A program made the translations under genes and the position numbers. 64,000 nt of DNA, from NCBI GenBank assembly GCA_963847705.1, contig CAWKBC010000030.1, positions 256,001 through 320,000 on the forward strand. The letters are read 5' to 3'. The notes below the pieces were generated by a model, which saw nothing but the letters and a program-made list of their open reading frames with translations, was not told where the DNA came from and searched no databases. Source of the stretch: an uncultured Pseudomonadota bacterium (GTDB lineage: Bacteria > Myxococcota_A > Polyangia > Fen-1088). This document shows, in pieces, positions 4,579 through 19,432 of the stretch. Positions within the stretch are counted from its first letter, which is position 1. Every line of letters starts with the position of its first letter.

Positions 4579-6543
4579 TTAGCGCGCGGGAGCGCCGAGG
4601 GTGGTCAGCAGCCGGCGTGCGTCGTCGTCGGTGACGGCCAGCGCGCTCAAGCGGGCGCGGGCGCCGTCGGCGGTCGCCGCGTCGCCGAGGCGTCCCGCCG
4701 CCTGCGCGCGGGTGGCGAGCGCGCCCGGATAGTCGTGCAGGATCCCCAGCGCACGTGCGGCCGCTGCCGCCGCGCCACGGGGGTCGTCAGCGGCGAGGCG
4801 CGCGCGCGCAAGCGCCTCCCAGGCGTTCGCAGAATAGAGCTCCACCGCGAGCGCCCGCTCGGCGGCGGCGCCGGCCTCGGGCGGGTGGCCGGCCTCGAGC
4901 TCGGCCGCCGAGGCGCGCAGCGCCACCTGAAAGCTCCCGGGCGTGGCGCGCTCGGCGCGCGCCAGGAACGGCAGCGCGCGCTCGGCGTCGGCGGGGGTGT
5001 TGCCGGCACGGAGGGCGGCGTCGAAACGCGCGATGAAGTACGACGCCTCGAGCTGGCGGGCCGACCACCAGGTGACGAAGATGATCAGACCGACGGCGAT
5101 CGGGGCGAGCACCAGCCGGCGCGCGCCGGCCCGTTTGATGGCGGTCGCCGTCGTCGCCACCGCGCGCTCGGGCTCGGTCGGCGCGCCGGCAGCGAGGAGT
5201 CCCACCGCGACGCCGAACAGAAAGACGGTGGCGGGCATGGCGAAGGGAAATCCGGTCAGGCCGCAGCCCACGAAGGCAGCCAGGCTGCCAGCACAGGCGG
5301 CGGCCGTGTCGCCTTCGCCGGGGAGGTCTGCGCGCCGTGCCGCGCGCACCCGGCGGACCGCGGCGGCGCCCAACGCGACGTAGAGGGCCAGCAGCGCGGC
5401 CAGACCGAACGGCCCCGTCTCGGCGAGCCGCTCCAGGAGATCGTTGTGGGCACGCCGCGGGACAGCCGTCGGTGACAGCACGCCGTCCTCGGTCGCGTTC
5501 GGCTCGGCGTAGAGGGGGAAGAGCACGGGAAAGTTCCCCGGGCCGATCCCCGTCAGCGGCTGCGAACGGTAGAGCGCCCAGGTCCGGCGCCAGAGCGCCA
5601 GGCGGGTGCGTGCGACCGGCGAGCTCGGATCGACGGCGTCGCGGACCACGCGCGTGGCGGGCTCGAACCGTTTGACGTCGAGCGCGTCGTGGGCGGTCCA
5701 GCGGCCGGGGATCGCCGCCCCGGCGAGGGCCAGCATCGCGACCGCGGCCACGGCGCCGACGGCCGCGCGTGACAGGCGAGGGCGGCGGAGCGCGAAGAAG
5801 ACGCCGATCCCGAGCGCCCCGCCCATCCAGGCCCCCCGCGCGCGGGCCACGGCCAGGTAGCCGATCTCCAGCACCAGAAACAGCGCCATCATCCGGCGAT
5901 GCCCCCGCGACGTCGCGGGGCCTCTCGTTTCGCCGAATCCGAGCAGACCAAAGCCGAACGGGATCGCCATCGCCACCGCCTCGGCGGCGACGTTGCGGTT
6001 GCCGAACGTCGAGCCGGGGACGCTGATCGACGGGATCGGCAGCGGCGAAAGACGGAGGTGCTGGGCGAGGCCGAGCAGCGCCACCAGGCCCGCGCTGGCG
6101 TGAATCGCCTCGCAGAGCCTGCGCGCGTTGCGGACCTCGGTGCGCGCCGCGTGGGCCGCGCCGACGGCCACCCCCAACATCGCCCCGATGCGGATGAGCT
6201 CGACAGGGGCGTACGGGGCGCCGGGCGCACCCCTGCCGGCCGCGCGCATCGCCGCGAGGACGGACAGAAGCCCGAACGCGGCGGCGGCGCCCAAGATCCT
6301 TCGGTCGCAGGCGCGGTCGCCTGGGACGCCCCCTCGGTCCTCGGGCGCCGCTCGCGGCGGCCACGATCCGGCGGCCCATCCCAAGAAGCCGCAGCCGCCG
6401 GCCAGCAAGAGAATGGCCAGCTTCGGGGCGACGAACGGCGAGTTGAGCGCCGGGAGGTACCCCAGCATGATCGCCACGGTTGCGACGGCCAGCGCGTTTC
6501 CGACCAAGGCGGCAGAGCGATCGCTGTCGCGGGCTGCGCTCAT
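4579..6543 (-). CDS. O-antigen ligase family protein with C-terminal TPRs
   Basis: STFGNRN, ARGAW, RLALW, GIGPGNF and AHNDLLERLAETG motifs; TPR-like helical tail. Confidence 0.82.
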   Translation of the reverse strand: MSAARDSDRSAALVGNALAVATVAIMLGYLPALNSPFVAPKLAILLLAGGCGFLGWAAGSWPPRAAPEDRGGVPGDRACDRRILGAAAAFGLLSVLAAMRAAGRGAPGAPYAPVELIRIGAMLGVAVGAAHAARTEVRNARRLCEAIHASAGLVALLGLAQHLRLSPLPIPSISVPGSTFGNRNVAAEAVAMAIPFGFGLLGFGETRGPATSRGHRRMMALFLVLEIGYLAVARARGAWMGGALGIGVFFALRRPRLSRAAVGAVAAVAMLALAGAAIPGRWTAHDALDVKRFEPATRVVRDAVDPSSPVARTRLALWRRTWALYRSQPLTGIGPGNFPVLFPLYAEPNATEDGVLSPTAVPRRAHNDLLERLAETGPFGLAALLALYVALGAAAVRRVRAARRADLPGEGDTAAACAGSLAAFVGCGLTGFPFAMPATVFLFGVAVGLLAAGAPTEPERAVATTATAIKRAGARRLVLAPIAVGLIIFVTWWSARQLEASYFIARFDAALRAGNTPADAERALPFLARAERATPGSFQVALRASAAELEAGHPPEAGAAAERALAVELYSANAWEALARARLAADDPRGAAAAAARALGILHDYPGALATRAQAAGRLGDAATADGARARLSALAVTDDDARRLLTTLGAPAR

Positions 6544-6554
6544 CCCAACCTACG

Positions 6555-8654
6555 CTACGCCGAGATGACGTCGGCCGTCGACCGGGGGCCCTGGGCGAGC
6601 CACTTCGCGCGCAGCTCGTCGAGCCGCGTCTCGAACCGCCGCAGCACCCGCCGGCGATGGTCGGAGAGGTGCAGCTTCAGAATCCCGCCCGACACCACCA
6701 CGTCGGCGCGCGGCGCCCGGGCGGCGCGCCGCCCGAGATGAAACCGCCAGGCGGTCCCCAGGAGCTGCTCGACGGCCGCCCCCCCGAAGGCGAGCGCGCG
6801 CTCCCCGAGGCGCTGGACGCCCGAGCTGTCGATGGCGTTGGTCGCGGGGCGCGGTTCGTAGGCAGGGTAGAAATCGCGCACCCAGTCGCGGTTGGCTTCG
6901 ACGAAGCGCTCGAAGGTGTCGAGCCCGGCGATGGGGACCAGCGACAGCGCCTGGTGGGCGGTGAAGAGATCGTGGTGATAGGCGATCTGCAGGTTGTTCT
7001 CGTCGACGAGGTAGTTCGGGCAGACCACGCCGCGCGTGCGGGTGAGGCGGCTGGCCAGGAAGAGCAGCGTGTAGGTGGTGAAGATCCTCCCCGCGGCGGT
7101 CACCACGAAGAGATCGATGTCGTCGCCGCCACGCGAGTTTCGGTGGGCGGTCCCGCCCGACAGCGCCAGCGAGCGAACGAACGGCAGCGCCGCCAGCGCC
7201 GCGATGACCCGCCGGTGACGCTCCAGGAGCTCGGCGGTCCGTCGGATCCCGTCGGTGCGCCGGACCACCAGCGCTTCTCGCCCGCGCAAGGTGAGATGAC
7301 CCTGGGGGTCGAGCGCCAGCAGGTCGCGGAGCGGGAGCGCGGCGGCGCGGCGCGCCACCTCGGCGGCATCGAGGCGCTCACCCAGACACGAGCGCGCCAG
7401 ATCGTCGACGGTGACGGCGGCGTCGAACAGATCGGCGTAGGCGACGGTGGCGGCGATGGCCCAGTCGCGCGCGTCGGCGCCGGCCGGCGGCGCGACCACC
7501 GCGCCCGCGCTGGCGGCGCGCCGCGGGGTCGTGCGGCGCGCCCGCGTCTCGTGGGCCAGCGCCCACAGACGCTCGGCCGCCGTCGACCAGGAGAACGTCG
7601 CCGCGCGCGCCAGTCCCCGCTCCCGCGCCGCCGCCCGGGCGATCGGGCTCTCCGCCAGCACCCTCAGCTCCGCGGCCAGCGCCGCGTCGTCGCCGGGGGG
7701 GACCAAGACGGCCGCGTCGCCGCTCACCTCTCGCAGCGCCGCGACGTCGGTCGCCACCACCGGCGTCCCGCAGGCCATCGCCTCCACCACCGGCAGCCCG
7801 AACCCCTCGAAGTGCGAGGGGTAAGCCATCGCCACCGCGCCGCCGTAGAGCGCCACCAGGTCGTCCTCCGGGACGTAGCCGAGCAGGTGCACGCGCCCCG
7901 TCCCGATGCGCAGCGCCAGCTCGGCGCGCAGCTCGCGGTCGCGCCAGCCCTTGGCTCCGACGGTCACCAGATCGAGCTCCGCGGCCGGCGAGCCGGCTGT
8001 CGCGCGCAGCCGGTCGAACGCCTTCAGCAAGAGCGGGAGGTTCTTGCGCGGCTCCAGCGTCCCGACGGTCAAGATGTAGGGGCGGGCGATCCCGTAGCGG
8101 GCGCGCACGCGCGCGATCGCCACGTCGTCGGGTGGACGGCAGGCGGGGTGGGGCGCGCCCGGCAACATCAAGATGCGCTCCTCCGGGACGCCGAGCAGCG
8201 TGACGACGTCGCGCCGCGAAGCCTCGGAGACGGTGCCGACCGCCACCGCGCCGCGCGCCACGACCGGAAGCAGGGGGCGCATGAGCGCGCGTTTGCGGGC
8301 GTTGAAGAACTGCGGCGTCCGGATCAGCGCCAGATCGTGCACGACGTTGACGTAGGGGCAGGGCGGAGCGAGCGGTGCCAGGTAGTTGGGGAAGAGCGCG
8401 AAGTCGGCGCCCGCCTCCTCGAGCATCCGGCCGGCGTCCCGTTGCATCCAGAGGTAGCGGAGCCGGACGCCGCCGGTGCGCAACCGACCGGCCCACTTGC
8501 GGGCGGCGGTCGGCGCCAGCTCGCGGTTGCCGATCAGCGTGACCTCGTCGCCGGGCGGCGCGCTGGCGATGAGCGCGTCGACCAGGTGCTCGGTGTAGTA
8601 GCCGACCCCGGTCCGTTCGGCGGTGCAGGTGGTGACCTCGACGGCGAGCTTCAT
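6555..8654 (-). CDS. GT4 glycosyltransferase fused to a pol-beta-type nucleotidyltransferase-fold domain
   Basis: GT4: GTLEPRKN, FEGFGLPVVEAMACG. C-terminal domain: ALSGG-x9-DDIDLFVV, CPNY, DLFTAHQ. Confidence 0.8.
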   Translation of the reverse strand: MKLAVEVTTCTAERTGVGYYTEHLVDALIASAPPGDEVTLIGNRELAPTAARKWAGRLRTGGVRLRYLWMQRDAGRMLEEAGADFALFPNYLAPLAPPCPYVNVVHDLALIRTPQFFNARKRALMRPLLPVVARGAVAVGTVSEASRRDVVTLLGVPEERILMLPGAPHPACRPPDDVAIARVRARYGIARPYILTVGTLEPRKNLPLLLKAFDRLRATAGSPAAELDLVTVGAKGWRDRELRAELALRIGTGRVHLLGYVPEDDLVALYGGAVAMAYPSHFEGFGLPVVEAMACGTPVVATDVAALREVSGDAAVLVPPGDDAALAAELRVLAESPIARAAARERGLARAATFSWSTAAERLWALAHETRARRTTPRRAASAGAVVAPPAGADARDWAIAATVAYADLFDAAVTVDDLARSCLGERLDAAEVARRAAALPLRDLLALDPQGHLTLRGREALVVRRTDGIRRTAELLERHRRVIAALAALPFVRSLALSGGTAHRNSRGGDDIDLFVVTAAGRIFTTYTLLFLASRLTRTRGVVCPNYLVDENNLQIAYHHDLFTAHQALSLVPIAGLDTFERFVEANRDWVRDFYPAYEPRPATNAIDSSGVQRLGERALAFGGAAVEQLLGTAWRFHLGRRAARAPRADVVVSGGILKLHLSDHRRRVLRRFETRLDELRAKWLAQGPRSTADVISA

Positions 8655-8765
8655 GCTGAAAAAGGCCTCGGTTGTCGCGTCGGATCGAGCATGTCAGAGT
8701 CCGCTGGCGGCCGCGTTGCCGACGGGGATCGGAAAAGAATGCTCTGCGCTCGGCCGTCTTTCCAT

Positions 8766-8793
8766 GCGCTTTTTTGCCGGGCGCTTTTTTGCC
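8766..8793. repeat. 13-bp direct repeat GCGCTTTTTTGCC x2 in a divergent promoter region
   Basis: Copies at 8766-8778 and 8781-8793. Confidence 0.7.
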
Positions 8794-8824
8794 TGCCCGG
8801 CCGGCGTTCGCGACGGACCGCCGC

Positions 8825-10087
8825 ATGACGGTGTCGCTCGGGCAGCTGGGCAAGCTGGGCAAGGACGGACGAACGGCGCTCGGCAACGTGGTCGTCAAGG
8901 CGCTCTCCGTCCCCGTCGAGAAGGCCTGCCGGCTGCTCCTCATGGTGGTGGCGGCACCGATCCTGGGCGCCGCGGCCTTCGGCAGCTACCAGTTCGCGTT
9001 TGCCACGACGACGATGCTGGCGCTCTGCACCGATCTGGGAATGGGCGTCTGGACCACGCGCGCGCTGGCCCGCGATCGGACGCGCGCCCCGGTCATCGTG
9101 GCCACCGCGCTCCGGCTGAGGTACCTGGCGTCGCTCCCCTACCTGGCGGTGGTGGCGCTCGTCGCTGCGCTGGCCGGGCCGGGCGACACCCGGTGGGCGC
9201 TGGCGCTGCTGGGGCTGGCGGCGCTGGTCAACGCCTTCGTCGATTACCTCCTCTCGATCTTCCGCGGGTTCGAGCGGCTCGTCGACGAGGCGCATCTGAA
9301 CGTGGCGCGCGCCCTGTTCATCGCGGCCGGCGGCCTGGCGGCGCTGGCGGTTCACCGCACCGTCGGCGCGCTCGCGGCTGGGCTGCTTGCCGGCGTGGTG
9401 GGGAGCGGCCTTTACGGCCGGCGCCTCTTGAGACGCGGCTACGGGCTCGACGCGAAAACCAGCAAGTTCGATGGCGAGCTCTGGCGCGCCGCCGCGCGGG
9501 AGGCGCTGCCGCTCTGGCTGGCGACGCTGTTCTCGCTGCTCTATTTCAAGGGCGACGTCGTCATCCTCAAGGCCTTCGCCGGCGACGCGGAGGTCGGCGC
9601 CTACAGCGCGGCCTACAAGATCTTCGAGGGCCTGATGATCGTCCCGTCGGTCGTGCTGGCGGCGACCTTTCCGCCGCTGGCGCGGGCCAAGGGCGATCCG
9701 CCGCGCCAGCGCCGCTGGGAGCTGGCGCTGGCGGCGCTGCTGCTGACGCTGGGCACCGCCCTCGCGCTGGGCCTCTATCTGGCGAGCGATCGGGTCGTCG
9801 CGCTGGTCTACGGCGCCGGGTTCGTGCGGGCCGCGCCGTCGCTGCGGGTGCTGGCGCTCGCGCTGCCGATCCTCTTCCTGAACTACGGCCTCACGCACTT
9901 TCTGATCGCGCGCGATCTGGAGCGGCGCAACCTGCTGTTCGCGGCGCTCATGCTGGTCGTCAACGTGAGCGCCAATCTCCTGTTGATTCCCCGGCTCGCC
10001 GGTCCGGGCGCCGCCTGCGCCACCCTCCTCACCGAGGTGGCGCTGACGCTCTGCTGCGCGATCGCGCTGCGGCTGCGCAGCGGCTAG
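8825..10087 (+). CDS. Wzx-type polysaccharide flippase (MOP superfamily)
   Basis: About 12 TMs; ILGAAAFGSY, DVVIL...EVGAYSAAYK and LIPRL..GAACAT motifs. Start moved to ATG 8825. Confidence 0.85.
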   Translation: MTVSLGQLGKLGKDGRTALGNVVVKALSVPVEKACRLLLMVVAAPILGAAAFGSYQFAFATTTMLALCTDLGMGVWTTRALARDRTRAPVIVATALRLRYLASLPYLAVVALVAALAGPGDTRWALALLGLAALVNAFVDYLLSIFRGFERLVDEAHLNVARALFIAAGGLAALAVHRTVGALAAGLLAGVVGSGLYGRRLLRRGYGLDAKTSKFDGELWRAAAREALPLWLATLFSLLYFKGDVVILKAFAGDAEVGAYSAAYKIFEGLMIVPSVVLAATFPPLARAKGDPPRQRRWELALAALLLTLGTALALGLYLASDRVVALVYGAGFVRAAPSLRVLALALPILFLNYGLTHFLIARDLERRNLLFAALMLVVNVSANLLLIPRLAGPGAACATLLTEVALTLCCAIALRLRSG

Positions 10088-11046: not shown

Positions 11047-11523
11047 CTATCGACGCTTTGTTGTCGGCGTGGCCCGCGGGACGCCCCTGAGGAGCGCCGC
11101 GATCTCGGCGATCCCCAGCCGGCTGCCGGCGACGGTGAGCGGGGCCAGCGTCCGGGCGAGGAAGGCCAGCTGCCCGGCGTCTTCGAGGTCCGCGAAGAGG
11201 ATGGCGGGGAGCGCGACGCCGGAGGCGCGAAGCCGTCGCAGGATCAGGATCCCCTGCGTCTCGGCCAGCCGCGTGCGTGTCCCGGCGTCCATCGCCGCGG
11301 GCGCCGGTCCCTGCTCGTCGACCAGCCGGTCAGCCGGCGTGCGGCGAAAATCGAGATCGAGCAGGAGCGCGTCGGCGTCCGCCGCGGCGTCGCGCGCTTC
11401 GCCGAAGTCCTGCGCCGGGAGAAAATCGAACGACTCGCCCAGGAAGCGCCGGAAGCGCTCCAGGTACTCGGCGCCGTCCTCGCAGACGACGAAGCGGAGG
11501 CGGGCCTCGGCCGGCGAGGTCAC
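11047..11523 (-). CDS. Stand-alone atypical response-regulator receiver protein (~158 aa)
   Basis: FVVCED acidic pocket, LLLDLDF phosphoacceptor strand, QGILILRRLR...LPAILF. GTG start overlaps the upstream TGA (GTGA). Confidence 0.72.
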   Translation of the reverse strand: MTSPAEARLRFVVCEDGAEYLERFRRFLGESFDFLPAQDFGEARDAAADADALLLDLDFRRTPADRLVDEQGPAPAAMDAGTRTRLAETQGILILRRLRASGVALPAILFADLEDAGQLAFLARTLAPLTVAGSRLGIAEIAALLRGVPRATPTTKRR

Positions 11524-14474
11524 AGCGGAAACGACGCCCCCACCAGCTTGACCAGCGGCGCCGGCTCGGGACGCACCACCAGATGCCCGCGCCAGGCGCG
11601 CACCAGATCGCGCACGATCGCCAGGCCCCGCCCGCTCTCGCGCGCCTCGATCGACTCCAGCGTCAACGCCGCGGGCGCCGAGTCGCCGACCAGCAGCGTG
11701 ACCCACTGGCGCCCGGTCACGTCGCGCTCGCGATCCGCGCGGATGACCACCCGAGCCTCGGGCCTGCCGTCGACGGCGGCCTGGGCGTTGCGCAGGAGGT
11801 TGCTGAAGACGGCTGCCAGCGCGTCGAGCTCGACGGGAAAGTCGAGATCGAGATCGGCCAGGGAGAGACCGGGGGCGGCCCACCCGTGTCCCCCCTGTCG
11901 CCGCTCGGCCTCGACGGCGCCGACCCAGCGCGAGAGCGCCCCGGCGTCGAGGCGGGTGCGTGGGCCCATCTTCAGCAGGGCGTCGAGCGCGTCGGCGTGC
12001 AGGCCGCGCAGGCGGCGATCGATCGCGGCGAGCTCGTCGCGGCCGTCGCGCGGCGCGCGCGTGGCCAGGAGCTCGGCGCGGGCCAGCTCGCGGGTGAGCG
12101 CGCCGAAGACCGGCTCGCGCGCCAGCGGCCGCAGCGGCGCCCCCGCACCGCGCGCCGCCCGCACCAGGCGCTCGTAGATTCCGGTCACCACCAGCGAGGT
12201 GGGGCGTGGCTCGGTCAGCGCGCGGGCGATCTCCTCGGGGGCCACCCGCGGATCGAGCGCGGCGCCGATCACCCCGGCCCGGTGCTTGAGGACGTCGTGG
12301 CGCAGCTCGGCGACGGCGCCCGCCACCTCGGGGAAGAGAGCGGGCCGCTTGCGCAGCGCCGCCTCGACGGTCCGACCGCCCCAGCGGCGTCGGGCCAGGA
12401 GCGCGAGCGCCGTCAGCGCCAGCGCGAAGGCGGCCAGCTCCATGCGCCGCCGCCGCGCGCGCCGGGTCTCCTCGGCGGCGTGCCACGACTGGGAGAGCTC
12501 CCGCTCGGCAGCCTCGGCCGCCGGAATCCAGCTGTCCGCCGGGACCGGAGCTCTCGCGGCGAGGGCGAGCGCCTTGCCCACCCGCGTCCGGGCCGCGGCG
12601 GCGTCGCCTGTCGCGCTCGCCGGGAGCTCCAGCCGGGCCAGCGCCCACCAGGCTGCGGCGACATCGAGATTGGCCGCCTGCTCGAGCCTCCGGCGATCGA
12701 CCAGACGCAGCTCGCTGTCGGGGAGCCTGGCCGCCAGGCGCGCCAGCCGGACCAGCGCGCCGCGGTCTCCGGCGGCGCCGGCCATCTCGTAGCAGTCGCG
12801 CGCCGCGGCTCGCTGATCGGCGTATTCGTAGACCATCCCGATCGCCACCAGCCGCTCGGTCGGCAGCTCGCGCGTGCAGGTCCCCCCGAGCGCGCGCAGC
12901 GCCGCGTCCGGTCGATCTTCGATCAATCGAATGCGGGCCAGCAGGCGAGGAGCGAGGTGCGCGTCGTCGCTGCGTCCGTCGCGTTCCGAGGGGTCGGTCT
13001 TCTCGCCGAGCCCGGCGCGGAGCGCGCGTGCCTCGGCCAGGTGCTCCGGGTTGGGCTCGCGCGCCACGTAGGCGACCAGATCCGCCAGCGCACCGGCGCG
13101 GTCGCCCGCCACGGCGCGGGTGGCCGCCCGCGCGAACCGCGCCTCCTGCACGTCGAGCGCCACGGCACGATCGATCCAGGGGGCCACCAGCGCGTCGCTG
13201 TCGGCCACCAGCGGGCCGGTTTTGTCGGCCTGGTCCGTCTTGTCGACCTTGCCCAGCTTGCGCACCCCGTCGGCCAGCATCCACAGCCCGGGGCCGTCGT
13301 CGTGGAGCGCATCGATCGTCGCCTGCGGCACGGTGCCGCCGAGCGCGTAGAGCGACACCGCGGCGGCGGCGAAGCCGGGCGAATCGGCCAGGGCCGCTTC
13401 GACCAGGTCGCGCCCCATGCCGATCGGATCGCCGACGTCGATCCACTCCTCGGCCTGCTGATAGAGGGCGCGCGCGTGCTCCGAGGGCGCGGCGCCTCGC
13501 GGCGCAGGCGCGCTGACCACGGCGCGCCGGCGGGCGATCTGGGCGCGCAGCTCGCGCAGATCCGACCAGGCCGGCTCGAGCGTGAGCGCCTGGCGCAGGG
13601 CCTCGTCGGCGCGATCGAGCTCCAGCGCCCCGCCGTGCGCGGCGAGCAGCCGCCCGAGCGCGCGCCAGGCCTCGGCGTTCGACGGCGCCAGGTTGACGGC
13701 GATCTCCAGATCTCGAATCGCGTCGTCGACCCGCTCGGCCGCCTCGAAGCGCTCCGCCTCCGCCGCCAGCCGCCGGGCCGTCGCGGGCGCGGGCGCCGGC
13801 CAGTCCTCGAGCGCGCGGGCCCGCTCGTCGAGGGCGATGGTGTCGAGCAGATCGAGCACCCGCTTGCGCTGCGCGCGCGACAGCGGCGGCGCCTCCGGGG
13901 CCAGCAGCGGTTGCAGCCGGGCCCGCGCCGCGGCCGTCCGCCCGACCGCCCGCTCGAACCCGGCCAGGCCGAGCAGCAGGTTGAAGCGCCCCTTGCGATC
14001 GTCCTTCAGCGCCTCCAGCCCCTTGTCGAGGAAGGCGACCACGGCGTCGCGCCGTTCCCAGCGCGCCGGATCCTCCGCCAGCAGGTCGGCCAGGTTCACG
14101 TAGGCGTAGTAGCGGCGCGGGTCTTTTTCGATCGCGCCGCGCAGGACCGCCTCCGCCTCGGCGCGGCGCCCCGCGCGCCCGAGCGCGAACCCCAGATCGG
14201 TCGCCAGCGCCGCGTTTCCCGGCTCGCGCGCGGCGGCCTTGGCGAAGAGCTCCGCCGCCTCGGCGTAGCTCCCCGCGCGCAGCCGCGCCATCGCCTGCGC
14301 GTGCTCGCCGCGCAGCGCCGCGCGCGCGTTGGCCGGCGCCAGCGACGGTGCGGCGGATTTGGAGGGAACCAGAGGTACGGGGGGCGCTTCCGTCGACGGC
14401 GGCGCGGTGCCGCCATCGAGCGCCCCGAGCGCCAGAACGACGGCCGTCGTCACCGCGCCGAGCGCCGCGATCAC
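11520..14474 (-). CDS. Membrane histidine kinase-like protein with a large extracytoplasmic TPR region
   Basis: N-terminal hydrophobic segment, many TPR helices, TM (LAAFALALTALALLA), H-box ELRHDVLKH, N-box VFSNLLRNA, G2 GRGLAIV. Start at the GTGA overlap. Confidence 0.75.
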   Translation of the reverse strand: MIAALGAVTTAVVLALGALDGGTAPPSTEAPPVPLVPSKSAAPSLAPANARAALRGEHAQAMARLRAGSYAEAAELFAKAAAREPGNAALATDLGFALGRAGRRAEAEAVLRGAIEKDPRRYYAYVNLADLLAEDPARWERRDAVVAFLDKGLEALKDDRKGRFNLLLGLAGFERAVGRTAAARARLQPLLAPEAPPLSRAQRKRVLDLLDTIALDERARALEDWPAPAPATARRLAAEAERFEAAERVDDAIRDLEIAVNLAPSNAEAWRALGRLLAAHGGALELDRADEALRQALTLEPAWSDLRELRAQIARRRAVVSAPAPRGAAPSEHARALYQQAEEWIDVGDPIGMGRDLVEAALADSPGFAAAAVSLYALGGTVPQATIDALHDDGPGLWMLADGVRKLGKVDKTDQADKTGPLVADSDALVAPWIDRAVALDVQEARFARAATRAVAGDRAGALADLVAYVAREPNPEHLAEARALRAGLGEKTDPSERDGRSDDAHLAPRLLARIRLIEDRPDAALRALGGTCTRELPTERLVAIGMVYEYADQRAAARDCYEMAGAAGDRGALVRLARLAARLPDSELRLVDRRRLEQAANLDVAAAWWALARLELPASATGDAAAARTRVGKALALAARAPVPADSWIPAAEAAERELSQSWHAAEETRRARRRRMELAAFALALTALALLARRRWGGRTVEAALRKRPALFPEVAGAVAELRHDVLKHRAGVIGAALDPRVAPEEIARALTEPRPTSLVVTGIYERLVRAARGAGAPLRPLAREPVFGALTRELARAELLATRAPRDGRDELAAIDRRLRGLHADALDALLKMGPRTRLDAGALSRWVGAVEAERRQGGHGWAAPGLSLADLDLDFPVELDALAAVFSNLLRNAQAAVDGRPEARVVIRADRERDVTGRQWVTLLVGDSAPAALTLESIEARESGRGLAIVRDLVRAWRGHLVVRPEPAPLVKLVGASFPL

Positions 14475-16189
14475 CCGCGGGCTCCGCGCAGATCGCGCAG
14501 CCGCAGACCGAGCTGGTTGAGACGCAGGTGGACCTGTCGGGCGGCGCCGCGCGGGCCCAGGAGCTCGCGCGCCATCCGCTCGAGATCGCCGTCGCAGGCG
14601 TCGAACATCGCGCGCAGGTACTGCCGCTCCACGTCGGCCGACAGGCGCGCGAAGCTGGCGGCGGCGCCGATCGCCACCTCGACCCGGCGGACGCCGCCGC
14701 GCTGCGCCGCCGCCGAGGCGCGTGCCCTGGGGGTGGTCACCGCGCCGAGCAGGCGCGCGATCAGCGGGTCGGGGACGTCGAGCACCGCCGGGCCGCGCGC
14801 GGCCGTGGCCGCCGGCCCGGCGTCGAGATGCTGGGTGAGCGCGAAGACCAGCGCGTTGGCGGCGAAGAGCCGCAGCTCGCGGTGATTGCCGGGCCATTCG
14901 TGCGCCACCAGGCGCTCCAGCGCCTCCCGGCTGATGAAGACCGAGAAGGCGTCGCGCCGGGCGGCGGTGGCGCGCGGACGGCCGAACACCACGACGTTCT
15001 CGCCGTCGGCGAAGTCGTCAGGCGTCGGGAACCGGGCCAGGTAGGCGCGGGCCAGCGGCCGCAGCGGCTCCGAGCGCAGCGCCTCGAGAAACGCGAAGCG
15101 GACCAGGTCGGGGAGATCCTCGCGCCGCTCGCGCAGCGCCGGCACCCGCAGCCGCGTGGCCGGGTTGAGCCGCATGTAGAGATCGGCCCGGAAGCGCCCG
15201 GCGTGCACCAGCGCCTCGACGTCCTCGTGCGTGGCGGCCACCAGCTTGGGGGCGGCCGGCCGGGCCCGCGTGTCGCCGAGCCGCGTGACCGTGCCCCGCT
15301 CCAGCACCAGCAGGAGCTGCCGCTGCAGATCGAGCTCCAGGTTGGCGATCTCGTCGAGGAACAGCGTCCCGCCGTGCGCCTGTTCGAACACGCCGGCGTG
15401 ATCCTCGACGGCGCCGGTGTAGGCGCCGCGCCGCGCCCCGAACAGGTGCGCCGCCAGCAGCGCGGGCGGCACCGTCGACAGATCGGTCACCACCAGCGGC
15501 CCCTTGGCGCCCGAGCGTGGGTGGATCACGTGCTCCGCCAGGAAGCTCTTGCCGGTGCCGGTCTCACCCTCGACCAGGAGCGGCAGCGGTGACCGGACCA
15601 GCGTCTCGATCTGGCGCCGCAAGTCGGTCATGGCGGGCGCGCGCCCCCAGAAGATCGGTCCCTCCTGCGCGCTGTGCGACAGGGCCAGCGCGCGCGAGAT
15701 CTCGGCGGCCAGGCTGCGGCTGTCGACCACCTCGTTCTCGCACAGGTAGACCAGGGGATCGGCCGGCCGCTCGGCGCCGAGGTCGGAGCCGGTGGTGGTC
15801 AGCATGACCACCGGCAGCGTCGGATAGGTGGCCCGCAGCTTCTCCAGAATGAGCAGGCCCTGCCGGCGCCGCAGCTGCTCCAGCGCCGCGCGCCGCAGCT
15901 TGGCTTCGACCGGCAGCTCGGACTTGTCCTCGGGGAGCAGCCGCTCCTCCGGCAGCGCGAAGTGCAGATCGAGCACCACCAGATCGGGCAGCGCCGGCTG
16001 CCGCCCCAGCGCCTCGGCCGCCTCGGCGTAGTCGTGCGCGCAGCGCAGCGGGCAGCCGCGCGTCCGCTCCTCGCAGACCTGGCAGGGGATGCGGCGGTCG
16101 CAGCGGGTGACGGTCTCGAACTGCGGCATCTGCCGGTGGACCATCTCCACCGTCTGGTCGCGATCGTCGATCACCAGGAGACGCGGCAT
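14471..16189 (-). CDS. Sigma-54 enhancer-binding protein (receiver-AAA+-Fis HTH) with a Cys-rich insert
   Basis: Walker A GETGTGKS, HLFGARRGAYTGA loop, Walker B TLFLDEI, FRADLYMRL, WPGNHREL; receiver LLVIDD. Confidence 0.9.
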   Translation of the reverse strand: MPRLLVIDDRDQTVEMVHRQMPQFETVTRCDRRIPCQVCEERTRGCPLRCAHDYAEAAEALGRQPALPDLVVLDLHFALPEERLLPEDKSELPVEAKLRRAALEQLRRRQGLLILEKLRATYPTLPVVMLTTTGSDLGAERPADPLVYLCENEVVDSRSLAAEISRALALSHSAQEGPIFWGRAPAMTDLRRQIETLVRSPLPLLVEGETGTGKSFLAEHVIHPRSGAKGPLVVTDLSTVPPALLAAHLFGARRGAYTGAVEDHAGVFEQAHGGTLFLDEIANLELDLQRQLLLVLERGTVTRLGDTRARPAAPKLVAATHEDVEALVHAGRFRADLYMRLNPATRLRVPALRERREDLPDLVRFAFLEALRSEPLRPLARAYLARFPTPDDFADGENVVVFGRPRATAARRDAFSVFISREALERLVAHEWPGNHRELRLFAANALVFALTQHLDAGPAATAARGPAVLDVPDPLIARLLGAVTTPRARASAAAQRGGVRRVEVAIGAAASFARLSADVERQYLRAMFDACDGDLERMARELLGPRGAARQVHLRLNQLGLRLRDLRGARG

Positions 16190-16191
16190 CG

Positions 16192-16542
16192 TTACTTCCC
16201 TTCTCCCTGTTTCTCTTCCAAGGAGCGCGCCAACGCGTCGAAGGCGGGCTCCAGCGCCAGGACGCCGTCGACGTCGCCCGCCGCGCCCGCCGAGACGGCG
16301 CGGGTCAGCGCCGCTTCGAAGCGCCCGAGCGCGCCGCCGCTGGCCGCGCCGTGCGGCCCGTCGGCGGCGAGCGCGCGCCACAGAGCGTGCGGGGTGGTGG
16401 GGGCGCCTTCATCGTCGACGAGATGGGCGACCAGCTCGCCCGGGGCTGGCACACCGCCCAGGTCGCGCCGATCGCGCGCCGGCCAGACCAGCCGCTTGAC
16501 CAGATCGTGCCGGACGCGGGCCAGCCAGCGGTCGTTCTCCAC
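16192..16542 (-). CDS. Small helical protein with an H-box-like motif (candidate histidine phosphotransferase)
   Basis: LARVRHDLVK resembles the kinase VAELRHDVLK. First gene of the operon. Confidence 0.55.
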   Translation of the reverse strand: MENDRWLARVRHDLVKRLVWPARDRRDLGGVPAPGELVAHLVDDEGAPTTPHALWRALAADGPHGAASGGALGRFEAALTRAVSAGAAGDVDGVLALEPAFDALARSLEEKQGEGK

Positions 16543-16549
16543 GCTCTCG

Positions 16550-16572
16550 ATTGTATAGAGTTAAATATTTAA
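16550..16572 (-). promoter_or_regulatory. Sigma-70-type -10 box (TACAAT) 7 nt before GTG 16542, plus the AT-rich palindrome TTAAATATTTAA
   Basis: TACAAT at 16555-16550 on the minus strand; perfect 12-bp palindrome at 16561-16572 in GC-rich DNA. Confidence 0.6.
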
Positions 16573-16630
16573 AAGGTAGAGCCACGGCTCGGGTGGGGCG
16601 CGGGGGGCTCGCTGGCGCGCGGGGCGGCCC

Positions 16631-16647
16631 CGGCACGGCGGCTGCAA
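16631..16647 (+). promoter_or_regulatory. Sigma-54 -24/-12 promoter
   Basis: CGGCACGGCGGCTGCA: GG(16632-33)-N10-GC(16644-45), close to TGGCACG-N4-[14 protein letters not shown] precedes ATG 16695. Confidence 0.75.
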
Positions 16648-16694: not shown

Positions 16695-17981
16695 ATGGAA
16701 CCGTTCAAGCACCGCTTCAAACAGCTCGTCTTCAAGAGCTACGTCTTCACCCGCGCCGCCGGCGCCGCCGTCGTGCTGGGCTGCATCGAGGTCTTCGGCA
16801 GCCCGCGCGGCCGCCGCTACCTGGGCGGCGCCGCGCTGGTCGGCTGCGCGCTGCTGCTGGTGTTTCGCCCGCCCGTGCAGGTGGTCGCGCCCGGCGAGAT
16901 CGGCGTGCGCCTCAACCGCCTCACCGGCGGCGTCAGCGTGGTCCCTTCCGGGCCGACCTTGATGGTGCCGCTCGTTCACGAGCTGCGGCGCTATGACCTT
17001 CGCGATCAGGTTTACCGCCCGCAAGAGAGCGCCACCGCGGAGGGGGCGGCGCCGTTCCAGTCGCTCGAGGGGCTGTCGGTCGGGGTGGCGGTGACCGTGC
17101 GCTACGCGCTCGATCCGGCCCGCGTCGGTGAGGTGGCCAAGCGCCTGCCGGCCAACGTCGGCGCCGATCTGATCGAGCCGGTCGTCGACGGCGTCCTTCA
17201 CCACGCGCTGTCGCGGCACACGGTGCGCGAGATCTTCAGCGACAAGCGGGTCGAGATTCAGGACGACATCCAGGCGGAGCTGCGCGAGCTGCTCGGCAAG
17301 GATGGGATCACGGTCCGCTCCCTCTACCTCGGCCACATCGATCTGCCGGCGCAGTACCGCGCCGGCCTGGAGGGGATGCTCGCCGAGGAGCTGGCCAGCG
17401 AGAAGATGCGCTACACGCTGCAGCTCAAAGAGAAGAAGGTGAAGGAGTCGGAGCTGGAGGGCGACGCCGCCAAGGTGACGCGCGAGAGGGCTGCCGAGGC
17501 CGCCGCCTCCGAGGAGATCATCGCCGCCAAGGCGCGCGAGGAGGCGATGAAGCACGTGCTGCCGCTCAAGGAGAAGGAGATCGAGCAGCGGCGCCTGGAG
17601 GCCGAGGCGCGCAAGGTGCAGCGGATGAAGGACGCCGAGGGTGAGGCGGAGGCGCGCAAGATCGAGACGGTCGCCGAGGCCGACTCGCGCCGCAAGCTCT
17701 CCGACGCCGACGCTTACCGCATCGAGGTGACCGGCAAGGCCAACAACGCGCAGATGGCGCGCGAGTCGGCGCTCATCGCCAGGAACCCGCTGCTGATTCA
17801 GAAGACGCTGGCCGACAAGCTCTCCGACAAGATCCAGGTCATCGTGGCGCCGCCGTCGGCGGGCGGCTTCTTCGCGGGCGGCCTGCTCGGGATGCAGAGC
17901 CACACCGCCGGCGCGGCCACCTCACCCCCGGTCGCCGCCAACGTCACCCCGGCCAACGACAACGCCGCGGAGGGGGAGTAA
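16695..17981 (+). CDS. SPFH/prohibitin-family membrane protein with a coiled-coil C-terminus
   Basis: TM followed by GEIGVR, QSLEGL.V.V.VTVRY and REIFS; long EA-rich coiled coil. Confidence 0.88.
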   Translation: MEPFKHRFKQLVFKSYVFTRAAGAAVVLGCIEVFGSPRGRRYLGGAALVGCALLLVFRPPVQVVAPGEIGVRLNRLTGGVSVVPSGPTLMVPLVHELRRYDLRDQVYRPQESATAEGAAPFQSLEGLSVGVAVTVRYALDPARVGEVAKRLPANVGADLIEPVVDGVLHHALSRHTVREIFSDKRVEIQDDIQAELRELLGKDGITVRSLYLGHIDLPAQYRAGLEGMLAEELASEKMRYTLQLKEKKVKESELEGDAAKVTRERAAEAAASEEIIAAKAREEAMKHVLPLKEKEIEQRRLEAEARKVQRMKDAEGEAEARKIETVAEADSRRKLSDADAYRIEVTGKANNAQMARESALIARNPLLIQKTLADKLSDKIQVIVAPPSAGGFFAGGLLGMQSHTAGAATSPPVAANVTPANDNAAEGE

Positions 17982-17983
17982 CC

Positions 17984-19432
17984 ATGACCCCCGCGGTCGT
18001 CTTGCTGGTCGCCCTGGTGGCGGAGGATCCGGCGGTCCTTCGCAACGCTCCCCGCGACAACGCCCCCGCGCAGGCCACCTTGTGGCGCGGGGACTGGCTG
18101 GAGGTGCGCGGCGAGAGCGCCGGGTTCCTCAAGGTCTACGACCACCGGCACGAGCGCCCCGGTTACCTGCGGCCCTCGCAGGTGCGGGAGTACCGGCTGG
18201 ATGAAAGCGCAGCGCCCGAGCTGGCCGCGGTCGTTCGCTTTCTGCGCGAGGCCAACGGCTCCGAGTCGCTGGGGATCGGGTATGCGGCGCTGGCGCTGCG
18301 GGCGGCGCCGGCCGGCACCGACACCAGCGAGCTCCTGGCCGCGATCGGCGGCATGGCCGACCGGCTGGCGCGGCGCGCTTCGGCGCGGCGGGCCGACGCC
18401 AGGGACGCCACGCTGGCGGCGCACGTCGCGGTCGCCGAGAGCTACGGCGTGAAGTTCGAGGTCACCGAACCGGAGGAGGTCGGCGGGCGCGCGCGGATCT
18501 GCTACGACGGCGAGGCCTGGGCGGCGGTGCTGGCGTCGCCCGTGGCGGCGCCGGCCGAGCGGGCCCGCGCGGCGCTGTTTCTCTCGGTGGACCCCTGCCG
18601 CGATCCGGTGCAACCGCCGGCCGAGGCACGGCTCTGGAACGATCGCCGCCTGCGGGCGCTGGAGACGGTCGACCTCGTGGCGGCGGGCGCGCTCCCCGCG
18701 TCGCTCGGGGGTCGGGTCCGGTTGCGCCACGCCGAGGCGCTGGCCTGGCGGGCGTTCGACGAGGCGAGGCAGGCCCACGCCGAGGCAGCATCGCGCGCCG
18801 AGGGGGCGGCGGTGCGGGAGCTGGCGCTCTGCGATCGCGGGGTGCTGGCGCCGGAGGATCTCGATCTCTACGACGAGACCGCGGTCCGCGTGGCTGCCTC
18901 GCGCTGGGCGGCCGAGACGCCACCCAAGGAGAAAGCGAGCCGCGCCCGCAAGACGGTCGTCTCCTTCGCGCCGCGCGCGCCCGGGGAGACCTGCGTCCGA
19001 CTGACCGACGGTGCGGCCGACAAGGCGCAGCTCCTGGGGGAGCGCTGCACGTTCGGCGTCGTCTGGCCGAGCGCGCTCCGCTGGGCCCCCTCGGGCGACC
19101 TCGCCACGCTGGCCGTTCAGCCGCTCCCTGCCTGGACGGAGCTCTGGGTCCTGCGCCGGGCCGCCGACGGCAGCTGGGGCTTCGACACCCTCACCGCCGC
19201 CGCGACCGATCCCGACGTCGGCTACGTCGAGTCAGCCGGGTTCTCACCCGACGGTGGCCGCCTGCTGGTCGTTCGCGAGGCCCGCGCCGCGGGCCACCTC
19301 TCCCGCCGGTTTCAGGTGCTGCTCACCGGGGCGCTCTCGGTCGAGACGTGGGCCAGCAGCGCCGACAAGCTGGTCGCCTTCAAGCGCTGGAGCGCCCCGT
19401 CCTGGCGGGCCGGCACGCTGGCGTTGAGGTAA
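17984..19432 (+). CDS. Hypothetical protein: SH3b-like N-terminus, helical middle, partial beta-propeller C-terminus
   Basis: LRNAP...LWRGDWLEVRGE...GFLKV...GYL (SH3b-like); WAPSG and FSPDG..LLV (TolB-like blades). Starts 2 nt after the SPFH stop. Confidence 0.6.
   Translation: MTPAVVLLVALVAEDPAVLRNAPRDNAPAQATLWRGDWLEVRGESAGFLKVYDHRHERPGYLRPSQVREYRLDESAAPELAAVVRFLREANGSESLGIGYAALALRAAPAGTDTSELLAAIGGMADRLARRASARRADARDATLAAHVAVAESYGVKFEVTEPEEVGGRARICYDGEAWAAVLASPVAAPAERARAALFLSVDPCRDPVQPPAEARLWNDRRLRALETVDLVAAGALPASLGGRVRLRHAEALAWRAFDEARQAHAEAASRAEGAAVRELALCDRGVLAPEDLDLYDETAVRVAASRWAAETPPKEKASRARKTVVSFAPRAPGETCVRLTDGAADKAQLLGERCTFGVVWPSALRWAPSGDLATLAVQPLPAWTELWVLRRAADGSWGFDTLTAAATDPDVGYVESAGFSPDGGRLLVVREARAAGHLSRRFQVLLTGALSVETWASSADKLVAFKRWSAPSWRAGTLALR

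Follow-up and report, generated by a model that had tools for sequence, protein, structure and literature searches.

The Vibrio LuxN/LuxQ-LuxU-LuxO relay, as presented in PMC12471899 and PMC10162802, is built of His-Asp-His-Asp parts that include a small stand-alone His protein and a receiver-bacterial enhancer-binding protein (bEBP) acting at a sigma-54 promoter. The Bacillus KinA-Spo0F-Spo0B-Spo0A relay includes a lone intermediate receiver and a separate His phosphotransferase, and systems of the NtrB-NtrC type as well as NmpRSTU (PMC6211767) group a kinase, a receiver (REC)-AAA+ activator and extra receiver proteins in one locus. These features are shared by a cassette of four genes carried by a stretch of 64,000 nucleotides (hereafter the window), which corresponds to positions 256,001 to 320,000 of contig CAWKBC010000030.1 (assembly GCA_963847705.1) from an uncultured bacterium placed in the Polyangia. 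The genes, here called G1 to G4, encode a small His protein, a receiver-bEBP, a tetratricopeptide repeat (TPR) sensor kinase and a lone receiver, respectively.

From the comparisons presented below, it appears somewhat probable that the cassette encodes an insulated kinase-REC-His-bEBP relay that switches on a divergent SPFH operon and works like LuxQ-LuxU-LuxO. Along the path that we infer, G3 would sense an extracytoplasmic cue, likely through its TPRs, and autophosphorylate H726; the phosphoryl group would then pass to D56 of G4, to H12 of G1 and finally to D74 of G2, which would bind a helically phased upstream element and open the sigma-54 promoter from which the divergent (DUF2914)-SPFH operon is read. 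The Lys located four residues after the phospho-His (H+4) of G3 and G1 would stand in for the Lys absent from the receivers and would thereby confine transfer to the four proteins, and a Cys-rich insert of G2, where a lineage has kept it, may provide a further input of metal or redox type. The parts fall outside HisKA kinases, Hpt/Spo0B proteins and canonical receivers, and G2 qualifies as a bEBP. No published description of the cassette was found in the main texts of the open-access literature.

A four-gene cassette inherited as a unit

The initial annotation, made from the sequence of the window, had pointed to a tightly coupled set composed of a small H-box protein, a receiver-bEBP, a TPR kinase and a lone receiver. 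All four genes were recovered on the minus strand (Table 1), with a 2-nt gap between G1 and G2 and GTGA overlaps at the G2/G3 and G3/G4 junctions; each is present in one copy in the genome, and the junctions mostly range from 0 to -4 nt in relatives. The synteny search that had been proposed as a check bears the grouping out. A scan with G2 gave 63 loci, i.e. 61 orthologues and two unrelated Planctomycetes bEBPs that were dropped. The orthologues come from metagenome-assembled genomes labelled Polyangia, Myxococcales or Deltaproteobacteria, and G2 is present in 23 of 24 genomes of the same genus. Room on both sides is available in 39 loci, and in 38 of them the four genes follow in order, the exception (L046) having no G1 upstream. 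With the short junctions, this indicates a clustering beyond chance.

The association extends to distant lineages. The near-clade kinase profile has matches in 62 of 401 genomes of the phylum, and 42 distant loci were gathered (40 from these matches and two from the same-genus scan), in which G4 was found 41 times, G2 37 times, the G1 motif 34 times and all four together 34 times. With deeper profiles, 87 of the 401 genomes have a G1 and 86 a G4 (E at most 1e-30): both occur in 84 of the 89 genomes having either and neither in 312, counts that are descriptive and carry no statistic because related genomes are not independent. One weak kinase match, in G152, was left out; this genome has neither G1 nor G4.

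Five genomes have non-adjacent parts, and all of them hold G1, G2 and G4. Three (G188, G332 and G337) display a clean split into a G1-G2 and a G3-G4 pair, which in G188 share one contig of 9.4 Mb and lie there at 3.30 and 0.93 Mb; in another one, G1 and G2 are together, and G3 and G4 lie on other contigs. The fifth shows the order G3-G4-G1-G2, which is that of the L104 and L148 loci; in L149 and L130 the same order is interrupted by 1.4-3 kb after G3. The flow from kinase to lone receiver, small His protein and bEBP proposed in the initial annotation thus gains partial support, from synteny, co-occurrence, the two pairs, this order and the invariant His and Asp; with the genes conserved together, the proposal stands, the transfers and their direction being predictions.

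Invariant phospho-sites and the lysine of the receivers

Residue counts refer to four matched alignments of 62 loci, of which 30 are near (window included) and 32 distant; the frameshifted L050 was left out of the kinase counts and L060 out of the receiver alignment. Identity between orthologues falls to about 15-40%, and the phospho-sites remain unchanged: H12 of G1, H726 of G3, D56 of G4, D74 of G2 and the acidic pairs of both receivers are invariant (62/62), i.e. two His and two Asp sites are inherited together.

The H-boxes of G1 (RHDLVK) and G3 (RHDVLKH) lack the N/T-P motif, as had been noticed; their RHD start presumably resembles that of Spo0B/AgrC-type boxes. The residue that follows the phospho-His is acidic throughout (D13 in 62/62 G1; 62/62 G3), and H+4 is basic in every G1 (59 Lys, 3 Arg) and every G3 (61 Lys, 1 Arg). 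By comparison, none of 69 ordinary kinases of the same genome has Lys or Arg at H+4, which is Asn, Thr, Ser, Gln, Ala or Gly instead, and 51 of 56 receivers carry Lys-Pro or Lys-Asp, the other five having a Lys in the same region; both control sets were picked by patterns that favour canonical proteins. The absence of the beta5 Lys-Pro from both cassette receivers was also confirmed. Indeed, the Lys that follows beta5 in canonical receivers occurs, within a 13-residue span, in one of 62 G2 and in none of 62 G4. Its site is mostly Glu or Asp in G2, in a register deduced from the beta5 pattern, and Ser or Asp in G4, in a register set by HMMER alignment to DrrD 3NNN. The acidic pair and the phospho-Asp of canonical receivers are kept in both proteins, and the beta4 Thr/Ser is kept in G2 (T131, 62/62) but not in G4 (Ala, Tyr or His; 0/62). 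The loss of the receiver Lys goes with the gain of one at H+4 of the donors, where it shares a helix face with the phospho-His, so that the missing Lys could be supplied in trans by the His donors, a suggestion that should be taken as tentative.

Pseudo-receivers are defined, in PMC12632262, as receivers lacking at least one of five catalytic residues, and both receivers of the cassette belong to them by this definition, a status that tells against a phosphorelay. According to the same text, the Lys is commonly replaced in the surveyed pseudo-receivers by Arg and not by acidic residues. In contrast, the receivers of G2 and G4 have a mostly acidic Lys site, keep DD and D, are not orphans since they have kinase partners, and are paired with His proteins carrying the H+4 Lys. 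As pseudo-receivers are thought, in this source, to be less dependent on phosphorylation, a rather improbable alternative is partner switching without phosphorylation, in which G3 would be a pseudokinase, G1 an anti-activator acting on G2, and G4, freed from G3 by the signal, would titrate G1. The lack of receiver Lys, the lack of Thr and the Asp at T+1 in G4, and the degenerate G1 and F boxes of the kinase would suit this scheme. It accounts poorly for the invariance in 62/62 loci of the four phospho-sites, both metal-binding acidic pairs, the acidic H+1 and the N-box, whereas DD2 is non-acidic in about 80% of the pseudo-receivers surveyed in PMC12632262.

The small His protein and the lone receiver

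G1 is a candidate phosphotransfer protein outside known families. Its AlphaFold2 model (predicted local distance difference test, pLDDT, 93) folds as a monomeric bundle of four helices, the first of which bears the His. G1 of the window matches no Pfam family, no family matches more than one of the 62 members, and no Hpt/Spo0B-type sequence match was found in the PDB. Foldseek relates the model to generic helical bundles, with no match at E 0.001; the best structural match (VIA; Z 8.8, root-mean-square deviation 3.4, 105 residues aligned) is typical of such bundles, and the ESM Atlas holds nothing at 0.9 or above. The family appears small and closed: 1.84 billion representatives contain 112 matches, including a few unrelated ones at the weak end. 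With deep alignments, G1 is weakly collinear with the His domain of the kinase (87 columns, probability 34%, E 4e-4), a homology that was not found with shallow alignments. Natural fusions were also sought for G1 and G4: among 7,999 candidates scored, the long G1 matches examined look like frameshifted read-throughs and none was accepted, and the five longer G4 matches look like read-throughs of the same kind.

G4 of the window also matches no Pfam family. It is a paralogue of the G2 receiver (hhalign 99.5%, E 1e-22), with which it shares a long beta3-alpha3 insert. Its Thr site is Ala, or Tyr or His in distant members, and its Lys site is Asp in most of the latter. Small residues at T+1 of receivers normally allow access; in G4 this position is Asp in 60 of 62 members. 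Intermediate receivers are reported, in PMC9981736, not to need an allosteric output, and the loss of the output-switch Thr in G4, together with its retention in G2, fits a role of G4 as intermediate receiver. A solitary receiver that resembles G4 more remotely and has its insert occurs in twelve genomes without a G1 match (L139-L144, mostly family f63); none of the other three cassette genes was found near it in the six loci read.

Globally, these relationships would be compatible with a history that we consider possible rather than likely: the Lys would have moved to H+4, so that the active sites are complete only in the cognate complex, G4 would derive from the G2 receiver and G1 possibly from the His bundle of the kinase by internal duplication, and G1 would found a new His-phosphotransfer family. 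They could also be accommodated by a branched system, in which G3 would phosphorylate G2 directly, G4 would be a phosphate sink or provide feedback to the kinase, and G1 would be a DHp-like phosphatase or drain resetting G2. One kinase could serve two paralogous receivers, G1-G2 and G3-G4 also fit regulator-target pairs, the weak collinearity of G1 with the kinase His domain would suit a DHp-like role, and NmpRSTU (PMC6211767) provides a myxobacterial sink precedent. We nevertheless regard such a branching as unlikely: a dispensable sink should be lost more often than the 84 of 89 genomes with both G1 and G4 indicate, the alpha1 surfaces of G4 (EDGxEY..R) and G2 are different and each conserved, and in split genomes G3 stays with G4 and not with G2.

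The sensor kinase and the sigma-54 activator

In Pfam, G3 matches TPRs and, weakly, HATPase_c, the latter in 53 of 62 members. The model of its core (pLDDT 92) matches DHp-CA kinases such as CpxA (E 3e-8), and N892, R895 and N896 (N-box), D931 and G950 of the GHKL domain are invariant across the alignment. G3 therefore has both a conserved phospho-His and a GHKL ATP-binding domain. It does not belong to class I HisKA kinases: the 62 members give no HisKA match, H+4 is Lys or Arg and there is no F box, in line with the initial annotation, which had seen no clear one. The unusual kinase G1 box reported there, DSA, is also confirmed (D931-S-A) and reads D-S/R/N-A/S across members. A hydrophobic segment precedes the H-box in 25 of 34 orthologues and is below threshold in G3 of the window. 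The deep lineage of L104, L130, L148 and L149 has far shorter kinases, whose extracytoplasmic part spans about 200 aa, which indicates that the sensor region varies around a fixed core. A second His, H731, is invariant at H+5 in 62/62 kinases and might be a metal ligand or a second site.

G2 matches Sigma54_activat (E 1.6e-50) and has the Walker A and B motifs, Arg finger and GAFTGA-type loop of the AAA+ domain of group I bEBPs. The sigma-54 loop reads G[AS]YTG[AS] in 29/29 near members, and the form GAYTGA is functional in HrpS (PMC3105312). The C-terminal segment is conserved, with no Pfam match to a helix-turn-helix. In the Cys-rich insert of the G2 receiver, C30, C36, C39 and C46 are present in 30/30 near orthologues; the insert is also found in the deep lineages L099, L104, L130 and L145-L149, and in only two of 37 members of the first distant set. 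It is a candidate Zn or Fe-S site. An assignment to a known Fe-S family was rejected, no Pfam match being significant (only LRV_FeS, E 0.07, in 1/8), and a likeness to the Fe-S loop of endonuclease III is not supported.

The acidic Lys site of G2 and the long beta3-alpha3 insert may alter the switch, and relays are reversible (PMC12632262). It is thus conceivable, and in our opinion very improbable, that the logic is inverted: G2 would be active when unphosphorylated or under a Cys/metal input and inhibited by the relay, or G3 would mainly drain phosphate via G1 and G4. G2, however, keeps Thr131 in 62/62 members and mostly an aromatic residue at K-3, like activating receivers.

Promoter, upstream element and likely target operon

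Next to the cassette, the operon encoding an SPFH/Band 7 membrane protein (Band_7, E 1e-21) is the likely target of the proposed relay. It is preceded by a sigma-54 box, whose score reaches at least 9/12 in 32 of 35 loci with a divergent SPFH gene, versus 4.4% of shuffled sequences and, on the opposite strand, two of 35 loci. Among 20 other loci, seven have such a box, the first divergent gene encoding DUF2914 in six of them. Where the SPFH operon does not diverge from G1, a sigma-54-like box is still present in four cases, and TCTAC/GTAGA half-sites lie upstream in three of these. The divergent promoters of L044, L053, L057 and L058 display GGCACG-N4-[AG]TGAA, with GA for GC at -12, and might carry a variant sigma-54 box.

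Upstream of the box, an AT-rich element was found in 33 of the 39 loci with a sigma-54 box, at a spacing of 53-57 bp in 27 and of 63-67 bp in four of the 33; its mean pairwise identity is 0.70, versus 0.35 for the spacer. A matrix derived from relatives picks two of the 106 sigma-54-like sites of the genome (scores 37.4 and 36.7; next, 7.3). One is the site of the window. The second one, on contig C32, precedes a relocated DUF2914 gene, and DUF2914 is the first gene of the SPFH operon in many relatives; as genome contamination is 6%, this copy could stem from a related strain. The genome thus contains a sigma-54 promoter with an upstream element and rpoN, and the element is predicted to be bound by G2. 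The element may alternatively be a site for IHF. The idea that it is a mere G1 promoter was rejected, since element and box recur on C32 without an adjoining G1 and since loci without a divergent operon keep only the first half of the element. As the element overlaps a -10-like box, whose distance to the start of G1 is 7 nt, the transcript may be leaderless and autoregulated. In L111 and L113, a strong sigma-54 box preceded by RTAGA half-sites lies upstream of G1 on the cassette strand, which for this lineage points to positive autoregulation.

The gene for the 482-aa exported protein also follows the SPFH gene in relatives. This protein has no Pfam match, and the sample of 400 further genomes of the phylum did not yield it; its Atlas matches are hypothetical proteins, the close look-alikes being mostly from Pseudomonadota. 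On the other side of the cassette, surface-polysaccharide genes lie downstream (Table 1) and are linked to it in close relatives only.

Table 1. Position and main characteristics of the features of the cassette and its surroundings (window coordinates, except for the C32 site)
Feature	Position	Strand	Characteristics
Surface-polysaccharide genes	4579-10087	minus	GT4 glycosyltransferase with long C-terminal extension, O-antigen ligase, flippase-like membrane protein (by reading)
G4, lone receiver	11047-11523	minus	158 aa
G4 sites		minus	E15, D16, D56 invariant; Thr site A111; D112; Lys site S134 (62-locus alignment)
G3, TPR kinase	11520-14474	minus	984 aa
G3 layout		minus	N-terminal hydrophobic segment, predicted extracytoplasmic TPRs, hydrophobic helix ~679-695, long helical H-box domain, GHKL
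G3 H-box H726-D-V-L-K730-H731	12282-12299	minus	H+4 Lys; second His at H+5
G3 second His H731	12282-12284	minus	
G2, receiver-bEBP	14471-16189	minus	572 aa
G2 receiver sites		minus	D8, D9, D74, T131 invariant; Lys site E151 (62-locus alignment)
G2 AAA+ motifs		minus	Walker A GETGTGKS, GAYTGA loop, Walker B DE, RADLYMRL (alignment)
Cys-rich insert of G2 receiver	16034-16102	minus	C30-x5-C36-x2-C39-x6-C46-x3-C50-x-H52
G1, small His protein	16192-16542	minus	116 aa
H12-D13-x-x-K16		minus	G1, predicted helix 1; candidate phosphotransfer protein
-10-like TACAAT	16550-16555	minus	overlapped by AT-rich element
AT-rich element TCTAY-N18/19-RTAGA	16552-16580		here TGTAT...GTAGA; candidate G2 enhancer
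Sigma-54 -24/-12 box CGGCACGGCGGCTGCA	16631-16646	plus	promoter of divergent operon
SPFH/Band 7 membrane protein	16695-17981	plus	cassette-linked in relatives; likely target
482-aa exported protein	17984-19432	plus	no known family; coupled to SPFH; likely second target
Second element and sigma-54 box	C32:166120-166222 (L064 about 5120-5623)		spacing 64 bp, ~1 helical turn longer

Points against the relay

Besides the status of the receivers, several observations weigh against the proposed relay. Against the Pfam Hpt and Spo0B families at E 0.05, none of the 62 G1 members matches. The kinase G1 box lacks both glycines and the F box is gone, and Asp stands at T+1 of G4, where a small residue is normal. 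Known intermediate receivers such as CckA-Rec keep both Ser/Thr and Lys, according to PMC9981736. The trans supply of Lys is challenged by L136, whose G2 has a Lys at the site and whose G1 and G3 yet keep the H+4 Lys, and by the invariant Arg residues R61 of G4 and R108 of G2, which could replace the receiver Lys in cis. Other gene orders exist, i.e. G3-G2-G4 with a convergent G1 in L145 and G1-G2-G4-G3 in L146. Finally, none of the 42 distant loci has an SPFH, DUF2914 or 482-aa gene, so the target is lineage-limited, and SPFH is found in only three of ten unlinked genomes; a phylum-wide SPFH regulon is accordingly not supported.

Significance and comparison with known systems

If the relay works as proposed, a new family would be added to the His phosphotransfer proteins, and the cassette would be a signalling unit of the whole lineage, present in roughly one in five of the genomes sampled from the phylum; standard annotation misses it, since Pfam recognises neither G1 nor G4 of the window. 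The cassette makes testable how pseudo-receivers are switched, as these may be phosphorylated with a Lys lent by a partner. A split active site, if real, would be naturally orthogonal to canonical systems, useful for synthetic signalling and a new route to insulation. If one of the alternatives holds, the cassette would still be a regulator with four parts, hitherto undescribed, that acts on an envelope (SPFH) operon. The lack of beta4 Thr/Ser in G4, the invariant basic H+4, the Cys cluster of G2 and the adjoining divergent sigma-54 promoter add to what the initial annotation had reported.

Among solved structures, the catalytic domain of NtrB comes nearest to the kinase profile (E 9e-7). The cassette nevertheless differs from systems of the NtrB-NtrC type, all NCBIfam scores being far below cut-off, and from NmpRSTU, which has two kinases and no small His protein (PMC6211767); in G3, about 155 residues, with helices that are extra to those of DHp-CA kinases, separate the His from the catalytic domain. 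The Spo0 relay, put forward in the initial annotation as the model for the parts list, does have His-Asp-His-Asp parts. However, Spo0F is a canonical receiver and G4 is not, G1 is predicted to be a 116-aa monomeric bundle and has no Spo0B match, and the output of the cassette is a sigma-54 AAA+ activator. Unlike in the LuxN/LuxQ-LuxU-LuxO relay, as PMC12471899 and PMC10162802 describe it, the first receiver is here separate and translationally coupled, G1 lies outside the Hpt families and both receivers lack the Lys. LuxQ-LuxU-LuxO nonetheless comes nearer to the cassette than the Spo0 relay does, since its last component is a sigma-54 bEBP.

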